Both the position numbers and the translations under genes were made by a program. Shown here piece after piece: positions 6,632 through 25,905 of a DNA stretch of 25,905 nt; position 1 is the stretch's first letter, and every line of letters begins with the position of its first letter. Under the pieces are notes generated by a model. That model was not told the origin of the DNA. It did no database searches and saw only the letters and a list, made by a program, of their open reading frames with translations. The DNA comes from a virus (taxonomy: Duplodnaviria; Heunggongvirae; Uroviricota; Caudoviricetes): the IMG/VR virus record IMGVR_UViG_2711768032_000005. The stretch is one strand, 5' to 3'.

Positions 6632-9226
6632 TTAGGCGGCGATGTTGATGTTATTTTTATATTTTAAGAGGGCGCTTTCTGGAACTGCTGGCCAGGCTGA
6701 GTATCTATAATAGTTCATATAATCTTTCTCTATCAGTCTCTTTAACTGTTTGTTAGCCTGAACTTCATCGTCAAGTAAAAAGAATGCACACATGGATGTA
6801 GCCCCTTTTGAATTATTATGTGCTAAAACTGAATTTATCTCATTCTTTTTAATGTCTTGTCTTTGTTTTTTCTTGGCAACTTCCCTATTGATTATTAAAA
6901 CATCTTTCTCTCTGTAATCTTTGATTTTTTCAAGATTTTCATTAGTTATTTTAATTGTTTCTTTATAGTTTCCTGCAAGAAGGTTAGTATAAGATTTTCC
7001 TAAGATATAATCACTAAACCCGTAACCTTTCTCATAAGCTTCATCAAGAAGAATTATCGCTTTTTCATAATCGCCGTTTAAAGATGCAATATCAGATTTT
7101 AATTTCAAAATGGTTATTTCTGATTTATTTCTTGGCAGGCTGTCAATAAACTCCTCTGCCAATTTGATGTTGTTTTTATCAATTAGCAATATGTCTATAA
7201 TACTGTCTGTATGATTATTCTTCCACGGACAATTCATGGCTTCTTTGGCTAATTCAATGCCAGCTTTGATGTCTCTGTTGCAGCCTATCTCATATCGAGC
7301 TTTAAATATAATGAAAGGAGCAATTCTTGCAATGTCGCCCTCTTCTTCATATTTATCAATAAAGTCTTTCATCAAGCCGGGAGTGTTTTCGTCAAAGTCT
7401 GTTTCAAATAAAGATAGATGCAGTTGTGTTAAATATTTTAATATATTTCTCTTTTTATTTTTTGATGATGTTTTGTAAACGTTGGATAATTTATCTATGC
7501 ACAATAATGCCTCTTCTTTTTTTTGCAATGCGCAGGTGAAATCAGTATATAACGACAAATATGTATCGTGAGTAGGGTTAACATCTTTTATTTTATCAAG
7601 TAGTTCTTGTATTGATTTGTTACAATCTTTCTTATCATAGCTTGATTGATGTTTTGTCTTTATCGCGTCATATTTTATTCTCCATGCAATATTATCCAGA
7701 TTACTGCTTTGGAGTAAACTTTTATCAATTAAATCATGTATTTCATCAAAGGTTATTAATTCCTCATCATGATTTTCTAGATGTAGAATAGCAATTCTGC
7801 TTAAATGATTCTTAAGATTTATGCTATATGGGAATTTTTCTAGCAATCCCTTTAGGTAATGTATTTTTTCATTTAGATCTGTGAATATGTTTGTCCTTGA
7901 TAGGGCGTAATTTATATTAAATTCATCAAGAGCTATGAGTTTATCACTAATTTCTAATGCTGACTTTGTGTCTTTTTGTTCTTCTTTTATTTCAATTAGC
8001 CTACGTAGATATTTAGATTTTATATTGTCACTATCAGCGTTATTGATTAAATCATTCAGTTTTGACTCTGCGTTTGAATAATTTTTATTTCTAATGAGGT
8101 TGTCAATGTATAACAAATTCTTAAAATCTTCTTCGGGAATTTTTTGTTCGTCTAAATCACTTTGGGATAGCTCGTTTATTAATGATGATATGTCATGTGT
8201 TAGAGTGTGTTTTTTTAATTTTGAGAGGTCAGATTTGATAATGTTATTTTTAGATAAGCTGTACTCATCTGTTATAAAGTTTTGAATCATCATCTCTCTT
8301 TTTGTGGATTTTTGATTCCCTCCAAAAGAGAGTGTGCAGCCTAATTCAAGGGCTAGTTCTGCCATTAATTCATCAAAGCCTTCTATTTCTACCCAATAAA
8401 CTTTCTCTTGACCTAGAAGCCTAATTAGTTCTGGTGGGATGGCGTCATTTTGTCTTACGCACCAATATACCCCATTCCGTAGGTAATCGTCCTGTTTTAA
8501 TAAATGTTTTAAAACATCCATGATAGAGCTGTCATTGCCAGCATAACCAACAAAAATAACCCCGTATTCTTTAGTGAATTCAGTTAGTTTTTCACGAGTG
8601 TTACCTTCTAATGACTCGGTTTCTTTTAAAGAGCTTTTTATGCTATCAAATAGATAATCACCATGTAATTTTATTATTTTTGGTCTTGAAGAAGTAATTG
8701 AGACGCCTTTAATTGATGAGTCATGTGCGCATAATAATGGTCTGTCAGAAGAAAATTGATAAAATGCTTCATTTATTAAATCGTCAAAATTTGTTGTGAA
8801 GACAGTATCAAAAAACTTTGATTCAAATAGTTCAACGAGATAAGCATATCCAATTGAAGGTAATTTTTTGTCTACTTGAAGCTCAACAAATCTTCTGCGT
8901 TGAGATGGGAGATCAAATTTCTTTTCAAAAAGAGAGGAGTATTCATTGTTTGGGTCGTACCAGACTGGATGGTTTTTGGATAGCCATTTTTTAGCTTCTT
9001 CGGCATCGATATATTCTTTATTGGATAGTCTTGTGTATATCTCTTCTCTCCATGTTGCAACTAACTCTTGACCAGTTTTTATTCCTGATGTAACGGATGC
9101 ACCAGCACCAAGAAAGAGTGAATAGTTAGGTGATGTACCTGATTTGATTTTTATATAATCTGCTAAATCTTTAACTGTTCTTTTTTTGGCAACCAGTTGT
9201 TCCTTGGTAGTATCACGATCAGACAT
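6632..9226 (-). CDS. SIR2-like (sirtuin-type NADase) domain protein with long helical C-terminal region; candidate anti-phage defence effector
   Basis: 864 aa; ATG at 9226 with strong GGAGGG RBS. N-terminal 300 aa carry SIR2-type motifs FLGAGAS (37-44), TTNFD (Asn146, codon 8789-8791), KLHGD (His188, codon 8663-8665), GYAGND; Asn-His spacing of 42 is similar to ThsA and DSR2. AT-rich, unlike flanking phage genes. Confidence 0.8.
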   Translation of the reverse strand: MSDRDTTKEQLVAKKRTVKDLADYIKIKSGTSPNYSLFLGAGASVTSGIKTGQELVATWREEIYTRLSNKEYIDAEEAKKWLSKNHPVWYDPNNEYSSLFEKKFDLPSQRRRFVELQVDKKLPSIGYAYLVELFESKFFDTVFTTNFDDLINEAFYQFSSDRPLLCAHDSSIKGVSITSSRPKIIKLHGDYLFDSIKSSLKETESLEGNTREKLTEFTKEYGVIFVGYAGNDSSIMDVLKHLLKQDDYLRNGVYWCVRQNDAIPPELIRLLGQEKVYWVEIEGFDELMAELALELGCTLSFGGNQKSTKREMMIQNFITDEYSLSKNNIIKSDLSKLKKHTLTHDISSLINELSQSDLDEQKIPEEDFKNLLYIDNLIRNKNYSNAESKLNDLINNADSDNIKSKYLRRLIEIKEEQKDTKSALEISDKLIALDEFNINYALSRTNIFTDLNEKIHYLKGLLEKFPYSINLKNHLSRIAILHLENHDEELITFDEIHDLIDKSLLQSSNLDNIAWRIKYDAIKTKHQSSYDKKDCNKSIQELLDKIKDVNPTHDTYLSLYTDFTCALQKKEEALLCIDKLSNVYKTSSKNKKRNILKYLTQLHLSLFETDFDENTPGLMKDFIDKYEEEGDIARIAPFIIFKARYEIGCNRDIKAGIELAKEAMNCPWKNNHTDSIIDILLIDKNNIKLAEEFIDSLPRNKSEITILKLKSDIASLNGDYEKAIILLDEAYEKGYGFSDYILGKSYTNLLAGNYKETIKITNENLEKIKDYREKDVLIINREVAKKKQRQDIKKNEINSVLAHNNSKGATSMCAFFLLDDEVQANKQLKRLIEKDYMNYYRYSAWPAVPESALLKYKNNINIAA

Positions 9227-21390: not shown

Positions 21391-23601
21391 ATGAGCACAA
21401 AATTCAGAACCGTTATCACCACTGCCGGTGCAGCAAAGCTGGCAGCGGCAACCGCACCGGGAGGGCGGAAGGTCAACATTACCACGATGGCCGTCGGGGA
21501 TGGCGGTGGTAAATTGCCTGTCCCGGATGCCGGACAGACCGGGCTTATCCATGAAGTCTGGCGACATGCGCTGAACAAAATCAGCCAGGACAAACGAAAC
21601 AGTAATTATATTATCGCAGAGCTGGTTATTCCGCCGGAGGTGGGCGGTTTCTGGATGCGTGAGCTTGGCCTGTACGATGATGCGGGAACGTTAATTGCTG
21701 TGGCGAACATGGCTGAAAGTTATAAGCCTGCCCTTGCCGAAGGCTCAGGGCGTTCGCAGACCTGCCGCATGGTCATCATCGTCAGCAGTGTGGCCTCAGT
21801 GGCGCTGACCATTGACACCACAACGGTGATGGCAACGCAGGATTACGTTGATGACAAAATTGCAGAGCACGAACAGTCACGACGTCACCCGGACGCCTCG
21901 CTGACCGCAAAAGGTTTTACTCAGCTAAGCAGCGCGACCAACAGCACGTCTGAAACACTGGCCGCAACGCCGAAAGCGGTAAAGGCCGCATATGACCTTG
22001 CTAACGGGAAATATACTGCACAGGATGCCACTACAGCGCGAAAAGGCCTTGTTCAGCTCAGTAGTGCGACTAACAGCACGTCTGAAACGCTCGCCGCAAC
22101 GCCGAAAGCGGTAAAGGCCGCATATGACCTTGCTAACGGGAAATACACTGCACAGGACGCCACCACAGCGCGAAAAGGTCTTGTCCAGCTCAGTAGCGCC
22201 ACCAACAGCGATTCTGAAACGCTTGCGGCAACGCCAAAGGCGGTAAAGGCCGCGTATGACCTTGCTAACGGGAAATACACTGCACAGGATGCCACCACGG
22301 CGCGAAAAGGGCTTGTCCAGCTCAGTAGCGCCACCAACAGTGATTCTGAAACGCTGGCCGCAACACCAAAAGCGGTGAGGTCTGCCTATGACAATGCTGA
22401 AAAACGTCTTCAGAAAGATCAGAACGGTGCGGATATTCCGGGAAAGGATACCTTCACGAAAAATATCGGTGCCTGTCGTGCTTATAGCGGCGCTTTGAGC
22501 ACTGAAGCCGGAAACTGGACAACCGCTCAGTTTATTGACTGGCTAGAGTCTCAGGGAGCCTTTAATCATCCTTACTGGATGTGCAAGTGTTCCTGGTCAT
22601 ATGGTAATAACAAAATTATTACCGATACTGACTGTGGGACTATTCATCTTGCAGGTTGCGTGATTGAGGTTATGGGCGTTAAAGCAGCAATGACCATTCG
22701 TGTGACCACTCCGAGTACATCAAGCGGTGGTGGTACCACCAGTGCGCAATTCACGTATATCAATCACGGAGCTGATTATGCGCCGGGCTGGCGACGCGAC
22801 TACAATACGAAAAATAAGCAACCGGCTTTTGCATTAGGGAAAACAGGAAATACGGTTGCAAATAATAAAGCGGTAGGATGGAACTGGGACAGTGGTGCTT
22901 ATTGTGCACAGGATGGCGGAGCATCAAAAATGGTGTTGCATTTTTACACGGGTGAGGGAAGTTGTCCGGCAATGCAGTTTCTTGTGGATTATAAAAACAG
23001 GGGGATTTTTTACAGGTCGGCACGTGATGGGTATGGATTTGAGGCTGACTGGTCAGAGTTTTATACCACATCACGAAAGCCAACACCTGCGGATATTCTT
23101 GCTCTGGCATTATCAGGCGGAAGCATGTCAGGCAGCATAAAATTTATCAATGATGCCTTCCTGATTTGGGAAAGAAACACTGACTGGGCGAAAATTGGAT
23201 TTAAAAATGATTCAGATGCTGATTCTGACTCATACATGTGGTTTGAAACTGGTGATAATGGCAATGAATATTTTAAATGGCGCATCAGGTCTGGCAGCAC
23301 AACAAAAGATCTGATGACGCTTAAGTCTGATGCACTACGGGTTACCGGGCAGGTGATACCATCAAATTTCAGCAATTTTGACTCCCGCTATGTCCGGGAT
23401 ATCCGACTTGGTGGTGCCGCCACATACAAACCTGCGAACAATGGCATGACATGGACACATCAGGCACCGTCCGGGTGTGTATATACCGGCATTATTGTTC
23501 AGGATACCGGCTCAAACTCTGCCGATAACATTGGTGGCGTATATTACAGACCGGTTCAGAAATACATTAACGGGACATGGTACAACGTGGCGCAGGTATA
23601 A
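21391..23601 (+). CDS. H: tail fibre protein H-like, with internal tandem repeats and a divergent middle segment
   Basis: 736 aa; N-terminus MSTKFRTVITTAGAAKLAAA and C-terminal tip QKYINGTWYNVAQV resemble P2 H as recalled (P2 H is shorter, about 669 aa). Confidence 0.85.
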   Translation: MSTKFRTVITTAGAAKLAAATAPGGRKVNITTMAVGDGGGKLPVPDAGQTGLIHEVWRHALNKISQDKRNSNYIIAELVIPPEVGGFWMRELGLYDDAGTLIAVANMAESYKPALAEGSGRSQTCRMVIIVSSVASVALTIDTTTVMATQDYVDDKIAEHEQSRRHPDASLTAKGFTQLSSATNSTSETLAATPKAVKAAYDLANGKYTAQDATTARKGLVQLSSATNSTSETLAATPKAVKAAYDLANGKYTAQDATTARKGLVQLSSATNSDSETLAATPKAVKAAYDLANGKYTAQDATTARKGLVQLSSATNSDSETLAATPKAVRSAYDNAEKRLQKDQNGADIPGKDTFTKNIGACRAYSGALSTEAGNWTTAQFIDWLESQGAFNHPYWMCKCSWSYGNNKIITDTDCGTIHLAGCVIEVMGVKAAMTIRVTTPSTSSGGGTTSAQFTYINHGADYAPGWRRDYNTKNKQPAFALGKTGNTVANNKAVGWNWDSGAYCAQDGGASKMVLHFYTGEGSCPAMQFLVDYKNRGIFYRSARDGYGFEADWSEFYTTSRKPTPADILALALSGGSMSGSIKFINDAFLIWERNTDWAKIGFKNDSDADSDSYMWFETGDNGNEYFKWRIRSGSTTKDLMTLKSDALRVTGQVIPSNFSNFDSRYVRDIRLGGAATYKPANNGMTWTHQAPSGCVYTGIIVQDTGSNSADNIGGVYYRPVQKYINGTWYNVAQV
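21910..22396 (+). repeat. four tandem 132-bp (44-aa) in-frame repeats inside the tail fibre gene
   Basis: Units start at 21910, 22042, 22174, 22306. Protein unit KGLVQLSSATNS(T/D)SETLAATPKAVKAAYDLANGKYTAQDATTAR; by eye copies 2 and 3 differ at about 13 of 132 nt, mostly synonymous; the fourth copy diverges in its last third. Confidence 0.85.
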
Positions 23602-23604
23602 TTT

Positions 23605-23646
23605 ATGCAGCATTTGCGTATTACCGTGAAGGAGATCGGTGAGTAA
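23605..23646 (+). pseudogene. 13-codon ORF (MQHLRITVKEIGE) at the position of tail-fibre assembly gene G; possible 5' remnant interrupted by the IS
   Basis: ATG 4 nt after the H stop; first four residues MQHL match my uncertain recollection of the P2 G N-terminus; stop at 23644-23646; IS genes follow. Confidence 0.3.
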
Positions 23647-23699
23647 CATCGATGGAGATCGGTTCGTGTCACTTTCACAGAACCGTTTTTAAATTACCT

Positions 23700-24352
23700 T
23701 CACTGATCTCCTTCGGTCAACGGAGATTGTATTTTCCGCATTGATTCTCCTTTAAGTTCGATCTTGATACTGCCATGAACCAGTCGATCTAGGATGGCAT
23801 CCGCATGTGTGGAGTCTCCGATCATTTTGTACCAGTTTTCCACCGGCAACTGGCTCACTACGATGATTGAGCCTCGTTGGTACATCAGATCCACTATTTC
23901 CAGCAGGTCGCTACATGCCCCTGATAGCACTGTTCCATCAGCGCTTTAAGGCGATAATAGTAGACCTTGTATCCCTGTCGGCAGGCATTATGACCAAGTG
24001 CACATGCCAGGAACGTTTTACCGCTGCCGGTGGCCCCGGTCAGTAAAATATTTTGTTTCAGGGTTAACCAGTTTCCCTGACTGAGTGAACGGATGAGGGC
24101 CCTGTCCAGCCCTCTATTGTTACGATAATCCAGCTTTGATAACTCAGCATTAAGTCTGAACCGTGCATGTTTGATCAGACGCTCTGCCTTCCTGTTTTCA
24201 CGGCAGGTTAGTTCTTCTGCTGTCAGTAATGACAGGCGTTCTTCGAAGCCCAGCTCCTGGTATGTGCCCGGTTGAGCAAGTTGCTTTTTAAGCGCATCAC
24301 GGAAGCCGGTGAGTTTAAGTGCGGTCAGTTGTTCGTAAAGATGATTCATCAT
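23700..24352 (-). pseudogene. istB: istB (IS21 helper ATPase), disrupted
   Basis: Two fragments in different frames (23894..24352 with Walker A; 23700..23930 with C-terminal RGSIIVVSQLP...ILDRLVHGS...KGESMR). Frames overlap around 23930-23945 and the segment expected to hold Walker B (hhhhDE) appears missing. Confidence 0.65.
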
Positions 24353-24363
24353 TGGATCCCGTA

Positions 24364-25905
24364 TCAGTGGTAATACTCACTGCCGCGTACGTTTTCGTGT
24401 TCCATCGTGGATAACAGATCTGGTTTTGGATCCTGAACAGGTTGTTTATCCAGACCTTTTTCCAGGATCGATTTAATACCTGACAGACGCCATACCTTTG
24501 TTTTCAGAGCTCTTGCACATGCTGCATTAAGTCTGGCTTTACTGTATTTTTTATGAAGGTTCAGGAGTCCAAGGCAGAAGCGATAGCTTTGTTCCGGATG
24601 TGGACGAGAGTTCAGTATATGAAGCACATAACTATGAGTTTCACTGCCTATGTGCCCCGCCCATTCCAGAAGACGCTCTGGCGTCCAGGTGGCATGCTGT
24701 CGATGAGCTTCAGGCATGTGCTCGTTGCGGGTACTGTAGCCATAAGTACGCTTGCGCGGGTGCACAGCAACCTCCTGCCCCTGATTGAAGAGTCTTACCA
24801 GTTCTCCGGAGATCCATGCTTCCAGTTGCTGGCCTAACAGCGAACATGGAACCGAGTAGTAATGTTTGTCGATTTCCACGTGGTAATCGGCATGAACTCT
24901 GACTTTCTTCACCAGGGTGTAACTGTAACTGGCTTCAGGAAGAGGCTTCAGTGCGGGTTTATCAAGCTGGATGAAGAGTTCTGCACGTGAATAACCCAAC
25001 TTCTGCATTATTTTGTTATTCAGTCTTTCCAGCAACTCCCGAATGCGCTGATTAAGCGATGCAAGGCTGTAGAAGATCTCATGCCTGATTCGGGCCATGA
25101 TCCAGCGTTCAACAACCTGAACGCCAACTTCAGCTTTGGCTTTATCTTTCGGTTTACGTGGCCGCGCAGGCAAAACTGCGACATTATAATGCTCAAGCAT
25201 CTGCTGGTAGGTAGGGTTAACGTCAGGATCATACTTACATGCCCTGGATGTGGCGCTTTTCAGATTGTCCGGAACAACAAGTTCAGGAACGCCACCCAAC
25301 CACTGGAAGCAGCGAACATGACTCATCACCCAGTCTTCAAGCTGCTGAGACCAGGTGGCCTCTGCCCATGTGTAACTTGATGCCCCGAGAACAGCTACGA
25401 TGACCTGAGCAGTTCTTATTTCTCCGGTCTCAGGGTCGGTAACGCCAACGGTAGGTCCACAGTAATCAACGAAAAGTTTTTCGCCAGCTTTATGTACCTG
25501 ACGCATTGATGGTGAAGTGGTTTTGAGCCATTCACGGTACATCCGGCAGTAATGGTTATAGCTGTAAAAACCGCCTGGATTACGCTCACAGTATTCTTCC
25601 CAGAGTAGCTGCAGCGTCACGCATTTATTACGCAGTTCCCGGTGTACTGTAGCCCAGTCAGGCAGAGAGTGCTTCTTCATCTTAACCTGGGTCTGAAGGA
25701 ACGCATGTTTTAGTTTTGTATCATCCCATCCTGTAGGTAAGGGCCACTGCTTTATGCCAAGTTGAGCCGCCCGATTAGCATATCTGGATACAACGGAAGG
25801 GGAGATTGCAAGACTACGACCAATTTGTCGATGGCTGAGTCCAACACCGTATTTAAGCCTAAGAATTTCTTTAAGTTTTCTCATAGAAATTGGAACTGTT
25901 GGCAT
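24364..25905 (-). CDS. istA: IS21-family transposase IstA
   Basis: 513-aa ORF; N-terminal HTH (LSHRQIGRSLAISPSVVSRY); directly upstream of istB. ATG lies at the last three bases of the window, so the true start could be further upstream. Confidence 0.8.
   Translation of the reverse strand: MPTVPISMRKLKEILRLKYGVGLSHRQIGRSLAISPSVVSRYANRAAQLGIKQWPLPTGWDDTKLKHAFLQTQVKMKKHSLPDWATVHRELRNKCVTLQLLWEEYCERNPGGFYSYNHYCRMYREWLKTTSPSMRQVHKAGEKLFVDYCGPTVGVTDPETGEIRTAQVIVAVLGASSYTWAEATWSQQLEDWVMSHVRCFQWLGGVPELVVPDNLKSATSRACKYDPDVNPTYQQMLEHYNVAVLPARPRKPKDKAKAEVGVQVVERWIMARIRHEIFYSLASLNQRIRELLERLNNKIMQKLGYSRAELFIQLDKPALKPLPEASYSYTLVKKVRVHADYHVEIDKHYYSVPCSLLGQQLEAWISGELVRLFNQGQEVAVHPRKRTYGYSTRNEHMPEAHRQHATWTPERLLEWAGHIGSETHSYVLHILNSRPHPEQSYRFCLGLLNLHKKYSKARLNAACARALKTKVWRLSGIKSILEKGLDKQPVQDPKPDLLSTMEHENVRGSEYYH

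Follow-up and report, generated by a model that had tools for sequence, protein, structure and literature searches.

A copy of ISEc12 within gene G (tail-fibre assembly) of a P2-like prophage

The insertion point at the H/G boundary

A copy of ISEc12, an insertion sequence (IS) of the IS21 family, interrupts the gene for tail-fibre assembly, G, in a P2-like prophage; it is placed between nucleotides 10 and 11 of G, i.e., in codon 4. The element arrived there by a single simple transposition, in which the 5-bp target GCATT was duplicated. Such an insertion is likely to leave the prophage with little or no G, and its particles fibre-less and non-infectious. Positions given below are those of the window, the whole 25,905-nt stretch of DNA analysed, unless a contig or a comparison locus (L001 and so on) is named.

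The tail fibre gene H occupies 21391..23601 of the plus strand and is intact, encoding a 736-aa protein with the Pfam domains Phage_tail_fib and Phage_fiber_2; its stop codon TAA is at 23599-23601. The H protein is 100% identical in strain D6, the closest complete relative, and in at least 24 other contigs. A region of H at 21900-22400 contains near-identical repeats of about 132 nt that encode the Phage_fiber_2 motif (BLAST self-matches of 88.8% identity). In relatives without the insertion, a 175-aa Caudo_TAP gene starts 3 nt after H, and the H/G boundary in uninterrupted relatives (L001, L005) reads TAA TTT ATGCAGCATTTGATAAAT. With G of Peduovirus phages, this empty-site allele shares 96% identity. 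The same 3 nt separate the H stop from the G start in the window, where the first 10 nt of G (ATGCAGCATT; 23605..23614, plus strand) are severed from the remainder of the gene, so that an uninterrupted G with its own start is lacking. The remainder carries PF02413 (L017), and its similarity to G and the position of the gene straight after H agree with its identity as G. The last five of the 10 nt (23610..23614) are the left copy of the target duplication GCATT; the right copy follows the IS end on a second contig, CXWQ01000014.1 (L017 298-302).

The IS starts at 23615 with TGCGTATTACC, as do four independent copies (L001-L004). The 13-codon open reading frame (ORF) at 23605..23646 of the plus strand (ATG CAG CAT TTG CGT ATT ACC GTG AAG GAG ATC GGT GAG TAA) is thus a chimera rather than a gene: it consists of G codons 1-3 and a TTG recreated at the junction, followed by terminal sequence of the IS. 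This composition places the IS within G and excludes an intergenic position. An earlier start, with the IS directly after H and the 13-codon ORF made entirely of IS sequence, had been suggested by megablast matches of other ISEc12 copies from 23602-23606. It was ruled out because the four other copies all open with TGCGTATT; the additional matches are chance similarity of flanks. The layout described in the earlier note, with H ending at 23601, a 13-codon ORF and istB and istA on the minus strand, therefore stands except in three respects: the IS begins at 23615 and not at 23602, istB is broken, and the element runs on past the window end. The arrangement named in the earlier note as a refutation, with an uninterrupted G at another place and an intergenic IS, does not apply, the IS lying inside G at codon 4.

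The other junction was sought beyond 25905, where the earlier note had proposed to look for the rest of G and a target-site duplication. Over its last 14,515 nt, the window matches the end of contig CXWQ01000001.1 (545,398 nt; assembly GCA_001269145.1) with full identity. The far terminus of the IS, ...GAAAATACGCA, lies 193 nt beyond the window and is exactly where this contig breaks off. An Escherichia albertii contig (L023) likewise ends exactly at an ISEc12 terminus, and such contig ends probably reflect the behaviour of assemblers at repeats. The ORF expected at the IS/G junction was predicted for each possible duplication length, and the predictions were looked up as exact sequences among about 15 billion proteins. 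The prediction for a 5-bp duplication, MISFHENTQHLIN..., is a 182-aa protein composed of MISFHENT and G residues 2-175; it exists exactly once in the collection, on CXWQ01000014.1 of the same assembly. By exact lookup, the fusion predicted for a 6-bp duplication (MKIRKHLIN...) is absent from the collection, as are the partial forms QHLIN, LINIT, TQHLIN and INITAG.

The end of CXWQ01000014.1 overlaps that of CXWQ01000001.1 by 297 nt of IS, from which we infer that H, the IS and G are contiguous across the two contigs. At the junction, ...ATACGCA is followed by GCATT and then by TGATAAAT; the sequence after GCATT is TGATAAATATAACGG, and the part from GCATT on corresponds to G from nucleotide 6 onward. 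G is followed on this contig by cargo genes, FI, FII, E, E', T, U, D, ogr and the chromosomal yegQ, with lengths as in relatives. Both the remainder of G and the 5-bp duplication are thus present, and G does resume beyond the IS, as the earlier note had allowed. The interruption of G by an IS21-family element is borne out by the empty-site allele in near-identical prophages and by this complementary IS/G junction on the second contig.

Since the contig breaks off precisely at the end of the IS and each junction is on a contig of its own, mis-assembly might have joined the IS to the end of H, or the 97-nt deletion in istB described below might be a gap-closing error; the deletion occurs on this contig only and its ends share 1 nt of microhomology. 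Both junctions, however, are located exactly at IS termini, and the flanks rebuild an uninterrupted G with a perfect 5-bp duplication, which is not the expected product of mis-assembly. The same junction also occurs in another prophage in an independent assembly (GCA_003302415.1), and the ends of the deletion have no k-mer in common, as a de Bruijn collapse would require. An account of the data by assembly error is therefore very unlikely, and it is hardly credible that the insertion itself is an artefact.

The ISEc12 copy and its istB gene

ISEc12 occupies 23615..25905 on the minus strand, with 2,291 bp in the window and its last 193 bp past the window end. The copy is 2,484 bp long versus 2,581 bp for the canonical element. 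Outside one deletion, it is 100% identical to canonical copies over 2,484 nt, a comparison that relates to the ISfinder reference sequence of ISEc12 indirectly, through copies named ISEc12 by RefSeq. The element, annotated as ISEc12, was found by megablast in 1,977 of 5,426 complete E. coli genomes, and its identification is no chance match.

The ends have the structure of the IS21 family, i.e., TG...CA inverted repeats with multiple internal repeats, and the terminal repeats that the earlier note had proposed to search for are present. The istB-side terminal inverted repeat, TGCGTATT..., extends over 23615..23660, with internal GGAGATC repeats at 23631-23637 and 23654-23660; both ends of the IS read TGCGTATT inward, and GGAGATC / GATCTCC motifs are repeated in each. 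A short target-site duplication, GCATT, is found on both sides. Among other ISEc12 copies the duplication is 5, 6 or 7 bp (5 bp in three of the four copies examined).

The transposase gene istA (24364..25905, minus strand) is intact and encodes 513 aa, its ATG being the final three bases of the window. IstA scores 310.5 bits against NCBIfam NF033546 (IS21 family transposase; cutoff 160), contains the Pfam domains rve and Mu-transpos_C_2 as a DDE transposase with an rve core, and is 100% identical to RefSeq ISEc12 IstA copies. In contrast to this intact gene, istB (23700..24352, minus strand) is a pseudogene with a 97-nt deletion at 23914/23915. Pfam IstB_IS21 is detected on both fragments (E-values of 2.5e-33 and 5.9e-18), and canonical IstB scores 270 bits against NF038214 (cutoff 200). 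The deletion removes codons 146-178 and shifts the frame, resulting in ORFs of about 152 codons (a 151-aa product) and 76 aa. The deleted codons include a stretch, LLLLDD, that we interpret as the Walker B box. In the whole collection, this contig alone has the truncated product of 151 aa.

These features suggest that this ISEc12 copy is a member of the family by descent which has become non-autonomous. If the deletion is real, IstB is lost and renewed movement would be possible only with IstB supplied in trans. Taken by itself, the deletion could have arisen as an assembly or gap-closing error rather than as a mutation, but this is somewhat doubtful.

Predicted effect on G and recurrence of the insertion

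The product of G is required to assemble the gpH tail fibres (PMC9594776). In the interrupted allele, the body of G has lost its own ATG, its weak Shine-Dalgarno sequence and the coupling of its translation to the H stop 3 nt upstream. It also lies behind about 2.5 kb of IS sequence antisense to the late operon V-W-J-I-H-G, the RNA of which would be untranslated. From the loss of start and coupling together with this antisense RNA, little or no G is to be expected, and particles assembled without gpG would be fibre-less and non-infectious. Immunity, lysis genes and the SIR2 cargo would be kept by the prophage. A tail-fibre assembly defect with loss of infectious particles is thus the probable outcome, as judged from gene structure.

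The earlier note had proposed that the prophage would be fibre-assembly defective unless G resumed beyond the IS. Loss of function is likely, but the statement needs qualification in that G resumes past the IS with an in-frame start borne by the IS. This start, a GTG 26 nt inside the IS end, replaces Met1 by MISFHENT and retains all 174 later residues of G. The phenotype might accordingly be mild: G would be made as the fusion of MISFHENT with residues 2-175 by read-through, or its function would be supplied in trans, and the phage would be infectious, perhaps with a lower yield. A gene caller marked the GTG-initiated fusion ORF as a gene, and Shine-Dalgarno pairing with the 3' end of 16S rRNA is similarly weak for the fusion GTG (-3.4 kcal/mol) and for native G (-4.5 kcal/mol). 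For intrinsic terminators, the IS gave weak hairpin matches and no strong candidate. Transcription reading through from the late promoter or a compatible Tfa protein of another prophage are possible sources of function, Tfa-type chaperones being sometimes interchangeable. The identical MISFHENT prefix in a second, distinct prophage (see below) also favours a functional fusion.

Against a functional fusion, no outward sigma-70-like promoter is present in the final 297 nt at the G-facing end of the IS, the coupling of G translation to H is lost, and Rho-dependent polarity is to be expected along 2.5 kb of antisense RNA that is not translated. Loss of G is also favoured by six terminator-like hairpins on the plus strand within the IS, versus 2.3 +/- 1.6 in shuffled controls. 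The allele is also rare, as neither the H/IS nor the IS/G junction occurs in any of the 5,426 complete E. coli genomes. A leaky allele with a mild phenotype is therefore improbable, although it deserves more weight than assembly error, and a loss of G remains the preferred reading.

The insertion point is not confined to one prophage. The MISFHENT prefix is also found on another G allele, in BGUM01000044.1 (L021 1-190; GCA_003302415.1), where the ISEc12 end and GCATT are followed by a G that is only 95.3% identical, with unrelated cargo downstream and tail genes of 97.4% identity. To judge from these divergent flanks, BGUM01000044.1 represents a separate P2-like prophage with ISEc12 at the same nucleotide of G and in the same orientation. 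Exact lookup of the fusion prefix on eight other G alleles found none, and a scan of viral contigs for the IS/G junction was likewise negative; a scan of genome contigs for the IS end gave a single match, which is at a contig end and uninformative. Contigs from other assemblies (L018, L019, L020 and L022) start 0-2 nt from the same point, and some of their proteins are named Shigella sonnei. Their starts are consistent with the same insertion and are no proof of it.

An ISEc12 copy in ythA (strain C11, L003 1496-1517) shares with window positions 23593-23614 a run of 12 identical bases, ATAATTTATGCA, just before the 5-bp duplications. The ythA and G copies have the same IS orientation, and the next-best pair among 40 flanks shares 7 bases. 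In a target-site logo of 40 distinct ISEc12 flanks, the information content is at most 0.23 bits per position, so that a general consensus cannot explain the choice of the G site. The site may be a local hot spot for ISEc12, and the preference is at most minor and local. It has been considered that the first codons of G form a preferred, oriented ISEc12 target, and that the start provided by the IS makes the insertion a leaky or reversible attenuator by which hosts keep a tamed prophage with its defence cargo; this proposal is a long shot.

The prophage, its age and comparison with known systems

The P2-like prophage sits between yegR and yegQ. The order in the window is yegR, int, C, cox, several small genes, A, the SIR2-domain cargo, Q, P, O, N, M, L, X, Y, K, lysA/B/C, R, S, V, W, J, I and H, which is the P2 (Peduovirus-type) gene order (int-C-cox...A / Q to G / FI FII E T U D ogr). 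All 30 phage coding sequences (CDS) of strain D6 align over their full length and without stops, in agreement with the view of the earlier note that the other backbone genes in the window are intact. The TraR-like gene of this prophage is intact, whereas that of D6 has a frameshift. The repressor gene product is a 99-aa HTH protein, which we take to be of the P2 C type; repressors of this type are not known to be SOS-inducible.

The SIR2-domain protein (864 aa; 6632-9226, minus strand) is encoded between A and Q, a position of P2 cargo, and is 91.6% identical to the D6 allele. Only its N-terminal 350 residues or so match PADLOC SIR2 models, which are linked to short pAgo systems (E = 1e-58), and no NCBIfam model matches the 864-aa protein. 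A second cargo slot, outside the window, is located between G and FI (L017 1041-2639), with genes for proteins of 92 aa, 59 aa (DUF3606) and 198 aa; in other relatives this slot holds a 299-aa gene, a 472-aa gene or a serine/threonine kinase gene.

Between this prophage and the empty-site relative L005 (GCA_050992295.1), in which G is intact, there are 4 mismatches over the 12,224 nt that lead up to the insertion point. Because of this low divergence and the identity of the IS to canonical copies, the ISEc12 insertion in G is regarded as recent. Of the proposal in the earlier note that the prophage is recently crippled, the recency is thus upheld; the crippling is likely, with the reservation that the IS-borne GTG restores an in-frame ORF.

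These findings bear mainly on annotation: G is best described as a pseudogene with ISEc12 inside it and istB as a broken gene, and the 13-codon ORF is to be removed. A probable defect in fibre assembly should be recorded for the prophage, although all its other genes are intact. It adds a further example of an IS immobilising a prophage with a defence gene (for the SIR2-domain protein). The element, the gene and the type of event are all known already, and the event is an ordinary one; its wider relevance is small unless recurrence at the exact site reflects a true hot spot.

ISEc12 has in common with the prototype IS21 the transposase gene istA and the AAA+ helper gene istB, TG...CA ends, internal repeats and a short duplication. 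The two differ in the length of IstA, which is 513 aa in ISEc12 and about 390 aa in IS21. For IS21, a promoter mechanism at tandem junctions has been described. In comparison with gpG of P2 and other Caudo_TAP proteins, the distinguishing feature of the present allele is that the start codon has been split off from a gene otherwise of the Peduovirus type and position. Two other P2-like prophages also contain this IS, that of strain EC05 (L001) in H and that of strain SCEC020022 (L004) in the replication gene A. Both disrupted genes are RefSeq pseudogenes; the targets differ from G, and the 2,581-bp IS is intact in both. The duplication of the EC05 copy is 6 bp (GTTAAG) versus the 5-bp GCATT in G.

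A close parallel is ISEc12 in tssM of E. coli ST131 clade C, which has a 5-bp duplication and is accepted as a gene knock-out (Microb Genom 2023, PMC10711316). As in G, the same element with a 5-bp duplication has caused a simple split of a structural gene of a contractile machine and was found via assembly junctions (PMC10711316). The break in tssM, however, is close to the middle of the gene, and a large clade is fixed for that allele (PMC10711316), whereas G is cut at codon 4 and the allele occurs in one assembly. Unlike the tssM case, that of G also involves an in-frame start from the IS end and a damaged istB.
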